Shown here in pieces: positions 424 through 10,028 of a stretch of DNA of 32,000 nt. Source of the DNA: Candidatus Heimdallarchaeota archaeon (GTDB lineage: Archaea; Asgardarchaeota; Heimdallarchaeia; Heimdallarchaeales; Kariarchaeaceae); contig JASBSB010000006.1 of NCBI GenBank assembly GCA_030149205.1, forward strand, positions 510,001 through 542,000. The letters run 5' to 3'. The number at the start of each line of letters is the position of its first letter. The first letter of the stretch is position 1. A program made the translations under genes and the position numbers. The notes beneath the pieces were generated by a model, which was given only the letters and a program-made list of their open reading frames with translations, searched no databases and was not told where the DNA came from.

Positions 424-1035
424 TCATTCTTTTGTCTTAAGTTTCTCCTTTTCTTCTTTTGCCTTTTCTCGTTGAAGAATAAAGCTATGAGTAAACTGAT
501 AAAGCCACTCCATAATTTCTAACGATACAGATGGCTTGTTCTCAAATACATTCCAACCCCTATCATAAATTCGATTCAAACTCAGAGATTCAATAATTTG
601 GGAACGGCTTAAAGACCCTATTTGAGTAGTCTCTGGAATTACTATCGCAAGTGGTAAGGCCTTATCCTCGGTTTGCCAAATAAAATCTTTCCAAAAGGAT
701 TTCCTGATTTCTATCACTAAATCATCATCGACATCAAGATTTAGAACAATAGCATCAACTGAACTATTAGAGAAATTTTTCTTCCATTTGGAAAAGGATT
801 CGACTTCTTCAACCAACCATTCCGTCTTATCGTCAGAGGATTCATTTAATGAATCAAACAGACTTTTTGGCTTTCCAACCTTAAGATATAGGATTTTAGG
901 ATGGATGATTGAATACTTATTAAAGGCGAATCGAAGAGTATCCATAATTGAAATATTAAATAGACTTATAATAACTCTTCTTTTTGAATCCCAATGAAGA
1001 ATTAAAGTATTTTCATTAAAGGTTTTTATTAACAT
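424..1035 (-). CDS. Hypothetical protein, probable degenerate Arf-like small-GTPase fold (pseudo-GTPase)
   Basis: 203-aa ORF. The C-terminal half aligns by eye with Arf (WKKNFSNSSVDAIVLNLD; LPLAIV; GSLSRSQIIESLSLNRIYDRGWNVF; MEWL), but the G1, G3 and G4 motifs are absent. Confidence 0.6.
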   Translation of the reverse strand: MLIKTFNENTLILHWDSKRRVIISLFNISIMDTLRFAFNKYSIIHPKILYLKVGKPKSLFDSLNESSDDKTEWLVEEVESFSKWKKNFSNSSVDAIVLNLDVDDDLVIEIRKSFWKDFIWQTEDKALPLAIVIPETTQIGSLSRSQIIESLSLNRIYDRGWNVFENKPSVSLEIMEWLYQFTHSFILQREKAKEEKEKLKTKE

Positions 1036-2833: not shown

Positions 2834-2841
2834 CTTTATAT
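2834..2841 (+). promoter_or_regulatory. Putative TATA box for the AAA-vWA operon
   Basis: CTTTATAT ends 24 nt before ATG 2866, the spacing expected for a leaderless transcript. Confidence 0.45.
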
Positions 2842-2865: not shown

Positions 2866-4410
2866 ATGGTAACAATAGGGAAATTAATGGAGGATGGTTA
2901 CGACGGTTGTTCCATTAGATCAATTATGACGGATCTGTCATTTCGTTCCCGTGTACTTTCAGATAATACAGTCAGAGGAAATGATGAATCAAAGAAGTTA
3001 GTAATGGATAAGATTGCAGTCGGTGGAAAAGTCCTACTAACTGGCCCTACAGGAGAAGCTAAGACTCTCTTCGCCAGGGTACTACTTAATCATATTACCA
3101 GAGAAATCAATACTAAGAAGTATCATATAAAAACAAGTCCATTTTTGGAAGATGCTGGATATATTATCAAAGTTATACAAAATTATGATAAAAATATTTT
3201 TAGTTCAATAGCTGTACTTCAAAGTCTTTCCCCATATAGTAGAATTGCTATTGAGAGTGTACTATCTGATGCTACAACAAAGGTAAATCTTGATAATACA
3301 GAACAACTAATAAAACTTGGAAAGAAAGTTCCTGAGGCATTGATGGAGTTAGAAGCTGAAAAAACCTTGGTGAGAACTGCACAGATTGACCCAAGAAATG
3401 ACCCTGATTCTTTGTATATGCTTCTTGCAGGTGTTGAAAACTTAGAGCAATTATTTAGTAAGGAAAGTGAAACAACATTTCACCATACAACTCATAAAGT
3501 TGGATCATTATCCCAAGGATTTCTTATAGTTAATGAGATACAGAGATTACACCTATCTTTGCTGGAGTCTCTTATGGGGTTCCTGGAGGATCCTGAGGGT
3601 ATAAAATACAACCTTGCAGGTCAACCAATTTACGTCGATGGAGCAATAATTTTTACTTCCAATGCACCACTAACTGTATTCGGAGAAGAGTCACAACCTA
3701 TAATCAACCGTATTCCTGAAGTACTGTGGCCAGCACGTAATATTGAGGATAGAATTTCAATAGTTCAAGATATGTTTGAAGAACATCTGGTTTTACAAAG
3801 AGCAAATATCGTTGCTAATCCTACCTTAATTCAAATGTATGAACTAACTGGAATGGGGAAAAATGACTTTATTTCTAAATTAGCCATTGAATTTGTAGCA
3901 ACACTTGCTGGTGAATCAATACCTAACTCATTAAAGAATCTCAGAGGAAGATCAGAGAACAGAAACACACGTGCAGAGTTCTATTCTGGCCTTGATGAAA
4001 TTCACAACCCTCAAAGGAGCCCACATATTGACCTGCGTACCTTGAATAACGCAATTGGAGAGATAGTTATTAGGGCTACTGAGGATATAACCACTGAGGG
4101 GAATATTTTAACCTTAGAAAGTGTCCAGAAGACTTTAGAGCTTTATGATATTTCACCCACACTAATTAACAATGCACTTCAGTCAATCAAGTTAAACCTC
4201 AGGAATCATATTAGAGAAGGTGAGAGCGCAATTAAGGTGGAGGATGTTTCTGAAGAACTAGACCGGTTAACCTCTCTTACTGAGCAAGACCTGATTTCAA
4301 TCATCATGAGCTATGAATCCCTTGAAGGAAAAGATAAGAAGGATGTTGATGAGATTTTGACTAAGCTTAAACCAAGCTACGAATCCTTATTAGAAGTAGC
4401 ATACTTATAA
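2866..4410 (+). CDS. AAA+ ATPase, chelatase/MoxR-related (Rv0958-like family with NE-type Walker B)
   Basis: Walker A GPTGEAKT, Walker B variant FLIVNE, sensor-1 TSN, Arg finger PIINRI. The N-terminal TIGKL..GY..SI pattern resembles the actinobacterial Rv0958 chelatase-like family. A vWA gene follows. Confidence 0.8.
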   Translation: MVTIGKLMEDGYDGCSIRSIMTDLSFRSRVLSDNTVRGNDESKKLVMDKIAVGGKVLLTGPTGEAKTLFARVLLNHITREINTKKYHIKTSPFLEDAGYIIKVIQNYDKNIFSSIAVLQSLSPYSRIAIESVLSDATTKVNLDNTEQLIKLGKKVPEALMELEAEKTLVRTAQIDPRNDPDSLYMLLAGVENLEQLFSKESETTFHHTTHKVGSLSQGFLIVNEIQRLHLSLLESLMGFLEDPEGIKYNLAGQPIYVDGAIIFTSNAPLTVFGEESQPIINRIPEVLWPARNIEDRISIVQDMFEEHLVLQRANIVANPTLIQMYELTGMGKNDFISKLAIEFVATLAGESIPNSLKNLRGRSENRNTRAEFYSGLDEIHNPQRSPHIDLRTLNNAIGEIVIRATEDITTEGNILTLESVQKTLELYDISPTLINNALQSIKLNLRNHIREGESAIKVEDVSEELDRLTSLTEQDLISIIMSYESLEGKDKKDVDEILTKLKPSYESLLEVAYL

Positions 4411-4421
4411 GAGGAATTTAA

Positions 4422-5801
4422 ATGCCTCACAGGATCAAATGGTTAACAGAAGCACATTATCAGGATCCATTGGTAGACTATGGGTCAACTGAATTTGTAT
4501 TACAGTTTGAGAATGCTGCAGATCTGTTACAAAAATGGAGAAATCCTAAACTAGGAAGATCATCAAGAGAAGGAACGGTTATTCGATTAGCAAATGAGGC
4601 TAATCGTACGATAACAACCATTGAGAATACGCTTCTGACAACCTCATTAGATGAGAAAACAGAGAGAGACTTGATCGAACAACTAAAAATTTTGAACTTT
4701 ATGTTGAACTTTACCCTTCCTGAGGCACTGGAATTAATCAATACCGACCAGTTGCTTTCTATTGAAGATGTGTTAAAATTCATACAAAAACATCTTAACC
4801 TTATGCAACAAGAAATTCAGATAGACGTAGGAATGGCTCAGGGGATACTGAACCAATTAAAGGATATTACTGACATCGAAATAAAGGATCAGTTTGGTAG
4901 GTCACGAAAAGTTAATCGAGATGAAGTGTTGGATGTTTTAGGAAGGACATTGGCAAATTTGATCATACGACAGTCATCTCTCAGACCTGTAGACCAGGTT
5001 GATATCAAACCTCGAGGTAAGCTACTGCTAAAAGAGACATTTAAAGCAGCTGTGTTAAGAACCTCTCGAATACCACCAGATGAGGTAATTTCAGATGATA
5101 TAAGAGTTGTAAATCAGGATAGGCTTTCATTGATTTACTTTATTGTAGATGTAAGTCAATCTATGTCAATACCAGTGTTTTCAGGAGGGCTCACAAGATT
5201 AGATGGCGCACTACTCACCTCACTAGGAATGTTTTATTATTTCAATACAGTAAACAGACGGAAACGTCGATCATTTGATACTTTTAAGATGCATCTTGTT
5301 CCTGTGACCAAACTTCCTTATGTGATAGAAGACAAGAGAAAATTGGAAGATTTTCTCTATAATGCTGAGGCAAAGGGAAAAACAAGATTGGTGCATGCTT
5401 TAAATGCAGTACATAATCATGTGAAATCCTATCAAAAAAACAATGATTTTGATGTTCAGGTAATTGTCCTAACAGATGGAAGACCAAATGTCCCCTTTGA
5501 GGGAAGAGTCCCAGGTGTTAAAAATAAGTTCCTAAATGAATATTTAAATGAATCTACCACAAACGTAGATACCAAGACCTGTATGCTTCAGCTTAACCAG
5601 TTTTTCAACTATTTAAAAAGAAACACAATCCGAGAATGGGATATTTCATATTTCCTGATGGCACCAGAAAAATTTAGGAATTCTGACCTGTTTAAGGACA
5701 CTCAGGTAATGTTAACAGGAATAACAAAACCAGTATTAGTTGATCCAACACAGATAGAAAAGCTTGGTGCAACTATTATTAGGAATATGGTGATGGGCTG
5801 A
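4422..5801 (+). CDS. von Willebrand factor A domain protein
   Basis: Intact MIDAS (FIVDVSQS, GKT, VLTDG) in the C-terminal half, preceded by LKETFKAAVLR, a segment typical of CoxE/ChlD-like vWA partners. Helical N-terminal half. Confidence 0.9.
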   Translation: MPHRIKWLTEAHYQDPLVDYGSTEFVLQFENAADLLQKWRNPKLGRSSREGTVIRLANEANRTITTIENTLLTTSLDEKTERDLIEQLKILNFMLNFTLPEALELINTDQLLSIEDVLKFIQKHLNLMQQEIQIDVGMAQGILNQLKDITDIEIKDQFGRSRKVNRDEVLDVLGRTLANLIIRQSSLRPVDQVDIKPRGKLLLKETFKAAVLRTSRIPPDEVISDDIRVVNQDRLSLIYFIVDVSQSMSIPVFSGGLTRLDGALLTSLGMFYYFNTVNRRKRRSFDTFKMHLVPVTKLPYVIEDKRKLEDFLYNAEAKGKTRLVHALNAVHNHVKSYQKNNDFDVQVIVLTDGRPNVPFEGRVPGVKNKFLNEYLNESTTNVDTKTCMLQLNQFFNYLKRNTIREWDISYFLMAPEKFRNSDLFKDTQVMLTGITKPVLVDPTQIEKLGATIIRNMVMG

Positions 5802-7318
5802 TGTTAGAACTAAAACAAGAATTTCTTGAAGCATATTTAGAAGCAAGAAAAGAGTTGAAAGAATTAATTGGAAAGGATCCGTCAGATTATGTTGTTGCTT
5901 TATTTATAGATTCACAAATTTATGATTCTGTACTAATGCAAACCTTACAAGGAGAGACACCCCATGCATTATTATCAACCAATGAATTAGAGCTATTACG
6001 GGAGATTAAGGATAATAAAAAGATTGTCCCTAATGGTATAGATCTATTTTTTGGATCTAAAAAACCAAGGATCTATCTGCCCAGTAACAGATTTAAATTG
6101 TCCAAGCAGGTGTTAAAAGCTAAATTAGTTCAGTTGCTTGCAATGGCAACTCTCTGTGAAAATAGCATGTCTAGATTTCCGACCCTTTTAGAACAGATAT
6201 ATAGAAATGATTCTATCATTAAAGAACTTTTTTCAAATAATGTATTCGAGTTGATCAAAGAGAGAGGAACTCCATGGGCATGGCAATATTTCCAAGATTT
6301 TGTTGCAACCATGAGATTGCTAGCAATTTATGGGTTTGATGATTTTTATGTTCCACCGAACACAGTTAGGAAAACTTCAGTCTTCTATAACTTTTTACTT
6401 GAAATAAAGGATATTAACAAGGAGAGGGCCCAACTCACAAGAAAACTTCCTTTGTTTGATCTTGTACTTGTTGGATTTGGTCATAAGGTATTGCGGACAT
6501 ACATAAACTCCTTACCTGAGAAAGTCCAGGAAGGGGTGGTTCCACAATTAAAAGCTAATCTCGGTCAACCAATTGGAGAGTTAGGTTCAATGTTTTTTGA
6601 TCTCTTGTCTGAATTAGAGGAAAATAAAGATAAAAACATCTTGGAGATAGCTACTGACTTAAAAAGTGATTATGACCTTGTACGTCACTGGAATAGGAAA
6701 GAAACTAAGCAATTCGTAGAAGAACTAAGAGAAAAATCAAGCCAAGAGGCAATTCATTGGCATTCATACCGAAATGGCTATTGGACTGACCTTTGGCCAC
6801 TTAGAGCTCGAACCTTTGATCAGGTCGCTGCATATATTGGAAAGATTCAAAGGAAAAATATGAGTCTTTTAGCAGATATATTGGAAGATAAACCAGAAGT
6901 AGAATATCATGGAAGTATAGAACTCTCTGACAAGGAAGTAGTGGTATTTAGTATCAAACCTGATACAATAGGTCAAGAACAATTAATAATTCTTAGAAAT
7001 CATCTGCTTGCCAGAAAAGATGAATTTCTCACGCCCCTACCAGGATTACCTGATGTAATTGTATTTAAAAAATTTGCTGGGATGCACATTGCCTCATATA
7101 TTGGAGTAAAGAATACCGACAGATATCCAAAATCCCCATATGATTTACCATTAATAACAAGGGCAATTCAGGTATCCAAGAAAAAGGATGCTTATCTTAG
7201 TGTATTGAGAGAGGAGGAAGGAAAACTTAGTGAGACTGCAGATTATTCTAAATTAAAGGGGCTCTCTGAACCTCAACATAGAGCAATTCGATATCTCATT
7301 AGACAGGAGGACAGTTGA
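5801..7318 (+). CDS. Hypothetical protein (505 aa), third gene of the AAA-vWA operon
   Basis: Long ORF whose start overlaps the upstream stop (TGATG, shared base 5801). No family recognised with confidence. Confidence 0.85.
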   Translation: MLELKQEFLEAYLEARKELKELIGKDPSDYVVALFIDSQIYDSVLMQTLQGETPHALLSTNELELLREIKDNKKIVPNGIDLFFGSKKPRIYLPSNRFKLSKQVLKAKLVQLLAMATLCENSMSRFPTLLEQIYRNDSIIKELFSNNVFELIKERGTPWAWQYFQDFVATMRLLAIYGFDDFYVPPNTVRKTSVFYNFLLEIKDINKERAQLTRKLPLFDLVLVGFGHKVLRTYINSLPEKVQEGVVPQLKANLGQPIGELGSMFFDLLSELEENKDKNILEIATDLKSDYDLVRHWNRKETKQFVEELREKSSQEAIHWHSYRNGYWTDLWPLRARTFDQVAAYIGKIQRKNMSLLADILEDKPEVEYHGSIELSDKEVVVFSIKPDTIGQEQLIILRNHLLARKDEFLTPLPGLPDVIVFKKFAGMHIASYIGVKNTDRYPKSPYDLPLITRAIQVSKKKDAYLSVLREEEGKLSETADYSKLKGLSEPQHRAIRYLIRQEDS

Positions 7319-7319
7319 A

Positions 7320-8126
7320 ATGGGACCTTTTAAGAAAATCAATGACAATCTTCTCAGTAGAATTGCAAGAAAGAGGCTTTCTAACCAAAATAACCTAGAT
7401 AAAATATCTGCTATTCACGTTTTGATGGAAGTTGGAACAATTCAAGACTTAGAAACTCTATTGCTGAATCTTTGGAAAGAACCTACCCATGAAATCCAAA
7501 TTGAGATGCTTAAAGCCATCAAACATTTAACAAAATCATTGAATTACACAAAGGCAACTGATATTATCAAAAAATATCTTTCTACTGGTAATTTAAGAGA
7601 AAGAATGCTTGCTGTTGAATTATGTGAGCCTTTTCCACTTGTCACAAGAGAGAATATTCTATTGGAAAAATCAAAAGAAAGTGAGGATGATTTGTTATTT
7701 TTACTGGTCAGAGTTTTAAGAGGTTCAAAAGATCTTGACTTTTTAGATAGAATTATTTCACATTCCTTTACAAAAGATCTGGTTTTACGTAGAGCAATCT
7801 ATACAACCTGGTTTGAGGGTATCAGCAACCTCCCAGAGGATCAAAAGCTTTATTACGGAACTAAAAATATTCATACTCTCATTCGTGCAACCTACGAGAT
7901 GAATGATAAGGGTACTCTCCTTAATTGGGTACTTGCAAATGCTGATAGAAGTGATTTACCAGAACCAAAGGCATATCCTGAATTTATCTTTCGATATGTA
8001 ATCAGTTTAATTCATCGTTGGGAGTATGACCCAGACGTGAATCGTGCACTTCATCAGTTAATCGTTCCAGCGTATTTCACATTTGATGAGAGGAATGATG
8101 ACCTCAAAGAGTTCGTGATTGTATAA
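7320..8126 (+). CDS. HEAT-repeat (alpha-solenoid) protein
   Basis: Repeated amphipathic helix pairs with HEAT-like signatures (DKISAIHVL, EIQIEMLKAI, RERMLAVEL, VLRRAI). Starts 1 nt after the upstream stop. Confidence 0.65.
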   Translation: MGPFKKINDNLLSRIARKRLSNQNNLDKISAIHVLMEVGTIQDLETLLLNLWKEPTHEIQIEMLKAIKHLTKSLNYTKATDIIKKYLSTGNLRERMLAVELCEPFPLVTRENILLEKSKESEDDLLFLLVRVLRGSKDLDFLDRIISHSFTKDLVLRRAIYTTWFEGISNLPEDQKLYYGTKNIHTLIRATYEMNDKGTLLNWVLANADRSDLPEPKAYPEFIFRYVISLIHRWEYDPDVNRALHQLIVPAYFTFDERNDDLKEFVIV

Positions 8127-8170
8127 AATTTTTATATATATCTAAAACTTTCCGTGAGTAATTGAATACA

Positions 8171-8825: not shown

Positions 8826-10028
8826 TCAAATAAAAATATCTAAAGAATCATTATCTTTGGATTTTCTCTCGGTTTCTATTTTGTCAAATGCGCTTCGGAA
8901 GTCTTTCATGGTGATCTGCGTTCTTTTTTCTCGTATGGCAAACATTCCAGCTTCTATACACACATTTCGAATATCTGCTCCTGAATAATCTTTAGATTTT
9001 TTGACTAAATAATCTATGTTGATTTCCTCAGCCAGATTTAGTCCTCTCAGATGAACTGCAAAAATTTCTTTCCTTCCTTCCTCATCAGCTGCAGGTACCT
9101 CAATCAGTCTATCAAACCGTCCAGGTCTTAAGAGAGCAGTATCCAAGATATCAGGTCTGTTAGTAGCACCAATTACCTTTACATTTCCTCTGGATTCAAA
9201 TCCGTCCATACTTGATAATAATTGCATCAGAGTTCTTTGAACCTCTCTATCACCGCTTGTGGCAATTTCTAACCGTTTTGATCCGATAGCATCCATCTCA
9301 TCAATAAAGATTATTGAAGGTGAATTTTCAATCGCAAATTCGAATAGCTCTCTAACAAGTCTAGCACCTTCTCCAATAAACTTTTGCACGAGTTCAGAGG
9401 CTATAATTCTTATAAATTTCGCATTGGTCTCTCTTGCTACTGCCTTTGCTAACAGGGTTTTCCCTGTTCCAGGTGGCCCATGTAAAAGAATCCCTTTTGG
9501 GGGGGATATTCCAATCTCTTCAAATATCTCTGGGTGTTTTAAGGGAAGCTCAACAACTTCTTTTATTTCTTCAATTTGATTTTTCAGTCCACCAATATCT
9601 TCATAACTAATAGAAGGTTTGTTTTCAACCTCCATGGCCCTGACTGTTGGATCGTGAGATTGTGGTAATATTTCCACTATTGCGAATGACCTTTGATTTA
9701 AGCCTATACGAGTGTTAGGTTTGAGTTGATCCTCAGAGATCTTGCTACTTACATTAACCACTAGTTGAGGCCCTGTACTGGATTTAACAATTGCTCTATT
9801 ATCTCCAAGGTATTCTAAGATTACTCCTTCAAATAGGGGGGGTGCCCTTAAGCGTTCCAATTCACTTCTTATATTATTAACCTCTCTCTGTAACCTTAAC
9901 CTTTCTCCTTCAACAACTTGCTTCTCTTTCTCTAACCTCTTTGTTTGTCTCTCTAAGTGTCTTGTGTAACTTAATAGATATGAGGCATCTTGGGTTGGAA
10001 TTTCTACATCTTCTTCTTCGACAGGCAT
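8826..10028 (-). CDS. pan: Proteasome-activating nucleotidase
   Basis: N-terminal coiled coil ending LRAPPL, OB domain, [15 protein letters not shown], second region of homology [20 protein letters not shown]. Confidence 0.97.

Follow-up and report, generated by a model that had tools for sequence, protein, structure and literature searches.

The PrkA/YeaG, YeaH/YhbH (DUF444, PF04285), and SpoVR/YcgB (PF04293) proteins form a widespread module of bacteria and some archaea that affects starvation survival and sporulation and whose biochemistry is unsolved. PrkA combines an AAA+ ATPase with a kinase-like domain at its C terminus (PMC13001217), and the bacterial genes prkA, yeaH, and spoVR show strong conserved cofitness, their biochemistry being unknown (bioRxiv 10.1101/072470). 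In the MoxR/vWA pairs (NorQ-NorD, CbbQ-CbbO, RavA-ViaA, CoxD-CoxE, and Rv0958-Rv0959), an AAA+ gene is directly followed by a gene encoding a C-terminal von Willebrand factor A (vWA) domain with a metal-ion-dependent adhesion site (MIDAS); the mechanism of these chaperone pairs is treated in two papers (PMC9976466; PMC13036017). The window analyzed here, 32,000 nt of a 3.3-Mb Asgard archaeal genome that is 93.5% complete (contig JASBSB010000006.1), contains an operon of four genes that encode an AAA+ ATPase, a vWA protein, a SpoVR-like protein, and a HEAT-repeat protein. The names of its nearest proteins in public records assign the genome to Candidatus Kariarchaeaceae of the Heimdallarchaeia. 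On balance we favor the reading that the four genes specify a Heimdallarchaeia-specific, ATP-driven AAA+/vWA protein-remodelling machine. Under this reading the core is a kinase-less and very distant cousin of PrkA-YeaH-SpoVR that has acquired a HEAT subunit and, in most relatives, an Arf-like pseudo-GTPase as well. The features are as follows, in window numbering.

2866-4410, forward strand: gene 1, AAA+ ATPase of an orphan Heimdallarchaeial family (514 aa)
4422-5801, forward strand: gene 2, vWA protein (459 aa)
5801-7318, forward strand: gene 3, SpoVR-like protein with a zincin-type N-terminal domain and a beta-rich C-terminal domain (505 aa)
7320-8126, forward strand: gene 4, HEAT-repeat protein with a PxYF motif and an acidic C-terminal tail (268 aa)
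2835-2840, forward strand: TTTATA, a TATA-box-like hexamer ~25 bp 5' of the gene 1 ATG (2866), a consensus match only
8127-8145, forward strand: T-rich run after the gene 4 stop, a possible archaeal terminator inferred from reading the sequence
424-1035, reverse strand: Arf-like pseudo-GTPase gene, the fifth operon gene in most relatives, inverted here

A first-pass annotation of this stretch had described four coupled same-strand genes at 2866-8126 behind a TATA-like box. Re-reading of the open reading frames and junctions bears this out. Gene 1 and gene 2 are joined by TAA, 11 bp containing GAGGA, and ATG; gene 2 and gene 3 overlap in GGC TGA TG, with stop and start sharing one base (the TGATG overlap); and gene 3 and gene 4 meet at TGA a ATG, a 1-bp gap with GGAGGA 5' of it. 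The box is present as well: TTTATA is the sole TTTAWA in the 77-bp spacer upstream of gene 1, and eight further TTTAWA occur inside the AT-rich operon.

The genes are found in identical order and orientation in all 16 of the relatives' loci fetched, which come from four families of the order, so the arrangement exceeds chance. Identity to the window across these loci is 55-75% for gene 1, 44-68% for gene 2, 33-64% for gene 3, and 21-41% for gene 4, and it drops with taxonomic distance (75% within the genus, 55-65% within the order, and 36-44% beyond). Gene 3 is present in 38 of 41 genomes of the order (four families and 12 of 13 genera). In a 301-genome sample of the phylum it occurs in that order and one sister family only, in nine of the 11 genomes of the latter; the other phylum families searched yielded a single, marginal match (E 8.7e-4, 18 bits), in a further family. 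In a distant lineage whose gene 1 is 36% identical, gene 1 is divergent from an operon of overlapping genes for a gene-2-like vWA protein, a gene-3-like protein, and a HEAT protein of 391 aa; the four genes are still linked there, and the association therefore outlasts rearrangement. The earlier expectation that genes 3 and 4 would be conserved beside the AAA+/vWA pair was thus open to refutation by neighborhood comparison and survived it. On comparative sequence grounds the four genes form a genuine operon that Heimdall-group Asgard archaea have retained; it is native to Heimdallarchaeia and vertically inherited.

Few multi-gene systems are, like this operon, at once near-universal in Heimdallarchaeia, the archaeal group nearest to the eukaryotes, and specific to them. 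Gene 1 is single copy in this genome, and its family comprises 105 clusters among 5.8 billion proteins; the named ones bear the labels of Heimdall-group or other Asgard archaea and are nearly all "hypothetical protein." The weakest match in the family is still E 5e-81, so there is no bridge to other families. The gene 3 profile retrieved just 20 representatives among 1.84 billion proteins, all of its own family. All five proteins (the four and the Arf-like one) are "hypothetical" in public records, and literature searches found no publication describing the operon, in keeping with the earlier view of it as a candidate for an undescribed multi-gene system.

Gene 3 provides the main link to a known module. 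It has no Pfam match; its profile against PDB sequences gave nothing meaningful; a language-model search yielded no usable match; and Foldseek against the PDB with its predicted model (predicted local distance difference test [pLDDT] 80, predicted template-modelling score 0.82) returned no match at E <=1e-3. In a shape search of the ESM Atlas, every family row among the 30 nearest models is SpoVR (PF04293 with SpoVR_C). The best SpoVR model aligns to gene 3 over 387 residues spanning 1-497, with a template-modelling (TM) score of 0.57 by query and 0.60 by target and a root-mean-square deviation of 5.3; this compares one predicted model with another, as a PDB sequence search for SpoVR found no structure. 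An exhaustive VIA structure search assigned residues 1 to ~320 to the zincin-type metallopeptidase fold (Z 7-9), with matches to 3cmn (Z 9.1), to M32, M1, M3, and thermolysin (Z 5.7-8.5), and to YbeY (Z 5.6-6.0). The protein, first annotated as a plain unknown, is accordingly described here as a SpoVR-like protein with a zincin-type fold, on the strength of the Atlas and VIA shape searches.

The fold of residues ~1-320 is shared with the gluzincin metallopeptidases (M1, M32, and thermolysin-like enzymes), from which gene 3 differs in its active-site motifs. Orthologs in Heimdallarchaeaceae have H-A-x-x-H...E, followed by E-G-F-A ~110 residues further on, where the motif spacing of gluzincins is ~20 aa; the EGFA is identical to the third-ligand motif of M1. 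The HAxxH of the relatives is a zinc-site-like His pair in which Ala replaces the catalytic Glu of HExxH, as it does in all gene 3 members that keep both His. In this genome the His/Glu metal ligands are gone, with QxxxM and VGFG at the ligand positions, and the site is therefore eroded. The HAxxH and EGFA motifs are collinear with AHAxxGH and NEGWA of SpoVR, and a relaxed profile alignment of gene 3 with SpoVR is collinear over both domains (INSxPxIxYL, LVxAHA, EGF/WA, and the C-terminal LxLxH; P 0.07, not significant).

Given a SpoVR-like gene 3, the closest known layout is PrkA-YeaH-SpoVR, which the first-pass annotation had not considered. The order AAA+, vWA, SpoVR is common to both; the canonical prkA-yeaH-spoVR order is found in 13 of 15 proteobacterial loci, and the operon here matches it. 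SpoVR and gene 3 are each ~500 aa, and their shapes match over both domains. A DxSxS MIDAS lies at about residue 245-250 in both the YeaH-type protein and gene 2. The Walker A-to-B spacing is ~150 residues in YeaG and ~155 in gene 1, and in our own alignment the residue at the Walker B acidic position is Asp in neither. The differences are that gene 1 is ~130 aa shorter than PrkA and has no match to the PrkA C-terminal domain (PF06798), that there are in addition a HEAT protein and an Arf-like pseudo-GTPase, and that the operon occurs in Heimdallarchaeia only. Because the order AAA+, vWA, SpoVR-like mirrors prkA-yeaH-spoVR, we take the core for a kinase-less cousin, though a very distant one, of that stress and starvation module.

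Gene 2 consists of a conserved N-terminal domain (residues ~1-230) followed by the C-terminal vWA domain, whose MIDAS is complete (D243-x-S245-x-S247, T321, and D352), all five residues being invariant in 14 members. Its VWA_2 match (23.8 bits) is under the cut-off of 27, its language-model neighbors are VWA_2 and Rv0959_3rd clusters, and its profile against PDB sequences gave marginal matches to TRAP vWA domains only.

Co-folding of gene 2 with gene 3 gave a score of 0.91, against 0.00 for the best of three controls; the mark is reached by 58 of 80 solved complexes and by two of 110 mismatched pairs, counts that hold only roughly here, as the co-fold was run with custom alignments and a riding Mg. 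At least 93% of the contacts recur between runs, and the pLDDT of the partner is at least 82. The predicted interface on gene 2 is formed by residues 2-107 and 155-161, in the N-terminal domain and not in the vWA/MIDAS. The model thus supports binding between the two proteins. Gene 3 had been proposed as a dedicated client or scaffold subunit; the predicted complex agrees with a subunit carried on the N-terminal domain of gene 2 and disagrees with a client held by the MIDAS.

Gene 1 has a Walker A motif, GPTGEAKT, at residues 60-67 and a Walker B of the form hhhhNE. N223-E224 are invariant in 19 family members, so the Asn is a family trait and not decay, and N266 (sensor-1 position) and R282 (Arg-finger position) are invariant in the same 19. 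The intact Walker A, sensor-1, and Arg finger and the NE Walker B noted at first reading, and the intact MIDAS noted for gene 2, were all recovered on re-reading. The long Walker A-to-B distance corresponds to an insert of ~150 aa, and the C-terminal part, from ~300 to 514, is helical. Most family members carry three Cys in the insert (CPF...CPxC; residues 91, 122, and 125); these are Ser in this genome and Ser/Ser/Ala in the congener. What may be a metal or disulfide site has disappeared in this genus alone.

The Pfam matches of gene 1 are all sub-threshold (AAA_22, AAA_5, Sigma54, and Mg_chelatase). That to AAA_5 scores 20.8 bits against a cut-off of 22 and is confined to residues 56-91; among the 19 members, weak matches were obtained to AAA_5 in 18, to Sigma54 in 17, and to Mg_chelatase in six. 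The family profile gave no match to PDB sequences at E up to 1, and Foldseek with the AlphaFold model (pLDDT 75 overall) gave none in the PDB at E <=1e-3. The longest structural matches are RavA (Z 9.6, 254 residues), BchI (Z 9.2, 239 residues), MCM subunits (Z 8-9), and MoxR 2r44 (Z 8.5), values in the range that the tool calls common. Shape matches in the Atlas comprise an AAA_5/Mg_chelatase cluster, an archaeal PrkA AAA cluster (TM 0.38/0.33, 233 residues), and YifB; the language-model neighbors are archaeal AAA_5/Mg_chelatase clusters. Of the initial placement of gene 1 in the MoxR/chelatase clade, what stands is these sub-threshold matches and middling structural Z-scores. In another distant lineage, gene 1 (42% identical) has no vWA, SpoVR-like, or HEAT genes nearby and sits between genes for a 192-aa protein with faint winged-helix matches and a 201-aa unknown.

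Several results weigh against kinship with PrkA-YeaH-SpoVR. The 19 gene 1 members have no Pfam match to AAA_PrkA (PF08298) or PF06798 at E up to 10, and a genome search with PF08298 found other loci only, at <=16 bits, and no PrkA family gene. DUF444 matches neither gene 2 nor anything else in the genome; gene 3 has no Pfam match to SpoVR (PF04293 and SpoVR_C), for which the genome search was also empty; and the gene 3 profile found no SpoVR among the 1.84 billion proteins. Comparison of genes 1-3 with YeaG, YeaH, and YcgB by hhalign, the targets being single E. coli sequences and 12-sequence proteobacterial alignments, gave nothing significant, with probabilities all below 4% (3% for gene 1 with YeaG and 0.3% for gene 2 with YeaH, the MIDAS motifs alone aligning); for gene 3 with SpoVR the hhalign P is 0.07-0.2. 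In a column-shuffle control, gene 1 scored above the null against YeaG over the generic AAA+ core only, and not over the Walker A-B insert. The language-model clusters of genes 1 and 2 are those named above, not PrkA or DUF444. Confidence in the AAA+ core of the gene 1 model is low (pLDDT <50 across residues 188-289), and the predicted gene 2/gene 3 interface shows no enrichment of conserved residues (p 0.25-0.45).

Homology to PrkA-YeaH-SpoVR is therefore not statistically supported by sequence; folds and gene order alone agree. In further sampling of SpoVR, a search for related loci returned enterobacteria only, and the relatives listed in a protein search with YcgB were all of >=75% identity. 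A solved PrkA structure (9xip) was found in the PDB by sequence and is absent from the fold lists, possibly because it lies outside the structure library, so its absence has no bearing either way. Two canonical SpoVR genes occur in a fragmented Asgard genome of the same class (80% complete, 6% contamination), either through contamination or through horizontal transfer; one of them is 762 aa and probably contains an inserted element.

The main rival is an ordinary MoxR/Rv0958-type AAA+ paired with an Rv0959-type vWA protein, to which a zincin-like pseudo-enzyme and a HEAT protein were recruited independently, the likeness to PrkA-YeaH-SpoVR being convergent or a mere sharing of the zincin fold. 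The operon would then serve the maturation or repair of one dedicated client complex, as do NorQD, CbbQO, and CoxDE. The gene arrangement is that of such pairs. For gene 1, this reading can also point to the weak, sub-threshold AAA_5 matches, the archaeal AAA_5/Mg_chelatase neighbors, and the resemblance to RavA, BchI, and 2r44, the best of its long structural matches; for gene 2, it can point to the Rv0959_3rd-type neighbors. No sequence signal of PrkA, DUF444, or SpoVR was found. Against this, all nearest Atlas models of gene 3 are SpoVR across both domains, beyond the zincin core, and the gene order and Walker A-B spacing are those of prkA-yeaH-spoVR. The MoxR pairs have a DE Walker B, unlike the invariant NE of gene 1, and lack the 150-aa insert and the 200-aa C-terminal extension of gene 1. 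The operon further has two or three extra dedicated subunits, and no candidate client enzyme is conserved beside it in the loci examined. Taken together, these points leave the MoxR-type pair a serious candidate, though one we hold to be on the improbable side.

The family of gene 4 supports its annotation as a HEAT-repeat protein, as first proposed: HEAT_2 matches 13 of 14 members (best E 7e-24), and a search with the family profile finds alphaRep HEAT proteins (E 1e-35). The copy in the window gives no Pfam match by itself. All orthologs have a C-terminal P-x-Y-F followed by an acidic tail rich in Asp/Glu, which might be bound by the free MIDAS of gene 2 or by the AAA+ pore.

Thirteen of the 16 loci have an Arf-like ortholog immediately 5' of gene 1 and co-oriented with it, ending 20-120 bp before it. 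Here the Arf-like gene is inverted and lies 1.8 kb upstream of gene 1; it is detached in this genus. The Arf Pfam match covers the C-terminal half only and scores 16.6 bits here and 26-34 bits in Heimdallarchaeaceae (cut-off 22.3). None of 12 Arf-like members has GxxxxGK[ST], DxxG, or NKxD, the G1, G3, and G4 nucleotide-binding motifs. The earlier picture of a four-component complex agrees with the four coupled genes but falls short for most relatives, which add this fifth gene. The genes between the Arf-like gene and gene 1 here encode an FKBP-domain membrane protein (1355-1993) and a ParB_N-like protein (2057-2788); both are located further upstream in three relatives' loci, and other Kariarchaeaceae keep the Arf-like gene adjoining gene 1.

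Under the kinase-less cousin reading, gene 1 would form an AAA+ ring of the chelatase/MoxR/MCM type. Gene 2 would act as an adaptor whose N-terminal domain bears gene 3 as a permanent partner; its MIDAS, still unoccupied, could grip an acidic residue on a target or on another subunit, in the manner of MoxR-vWA pairs such as NorQ-NorD. Gene 3, a peptidase-shaped pseudo-enzyme, would most likely serve as a recognition or regulatory module, and gene 4 as a HEAT scaffold. In most relatives an Arf-shaped protein presumably incapable of GTP binding would be co-transcribed with them. A kinase-less cousin in which the MIDAS is free and the vWA and SpoVR-like proteins are predicted to form a heterodimer would offer a second, simpler system for asking what such machines do.

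A stronger version of this reading makes the operon an ancient, vertically inherited archaeal ortholog of PrkA-YeaH-SpoVR in which the kinase-like domain has disappeared and two components have been added, a HEAT scaffold and a nucleotide-blind subunit derived from Arf. We regard it as doubtful; if true, it would be the first case, among the archaea most closely related to eukaryotes, of a "eukaryotic signature" fold of the Arf family forming part of an AAA+/MIDAS remodelling machine.

An antivirus or conflict system of the MoxR-vWA ternary type, with the AAA+/vWA pair as the sensor of invasion and the peptidase-like protein as the effector, would account for the peptidase-like fold adjoining an NTPase, and a bpMoxR (MoxR-vWA-beta-propeller) cluster is among the feature neighbors of gene 1 (score 0.95). 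No PADLOC family was significant, however, the best being TRIP13 (E 7e-4, 17 bits, P-loop region only), and no mobile-element or defense-island context was seen. The operon is near-universal in the order and single copy, with identity that tracks taxonomy, and the would-be effector lacks the catalytic Glu family-wide and has lost its metal ligands here. A defense role is unlikely, and this specific form of it highly so.

The least credible alternative, a metal chelatase of the ChlI/ChlD kind (BchI/BchD, CobS/CobT), shares the AAA+ and vWA/MIDAS logic of ChlI-ChlD-ChlH and can point to the weak Mg_chelatase matches of gene 1, to BchI among its best structural matches, and to 28.6 bits for the tail of gene 2 against TIGR02442 (cobaltochelatase), but that score is far under the cut-off of 779, gene 2 has no ChlD-type, AAA-like N-terminal half, and the CobN/ChlH subunit was not found in this 93.5%-complete genome, for which reason we rejected it: the search with PF02514 was empty here and positive in five control genomes. 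The first-pass annotation had noted that no ChlH/CobN gene lies nearby.

Downstream of the operon, in an adjacency not conserved in the 16 relatives' loci, lies a convergent gene (8826-10028, reverse strand) for a PAN-type AAA protein (proteasome-activating nucleotidase) with OB domains.

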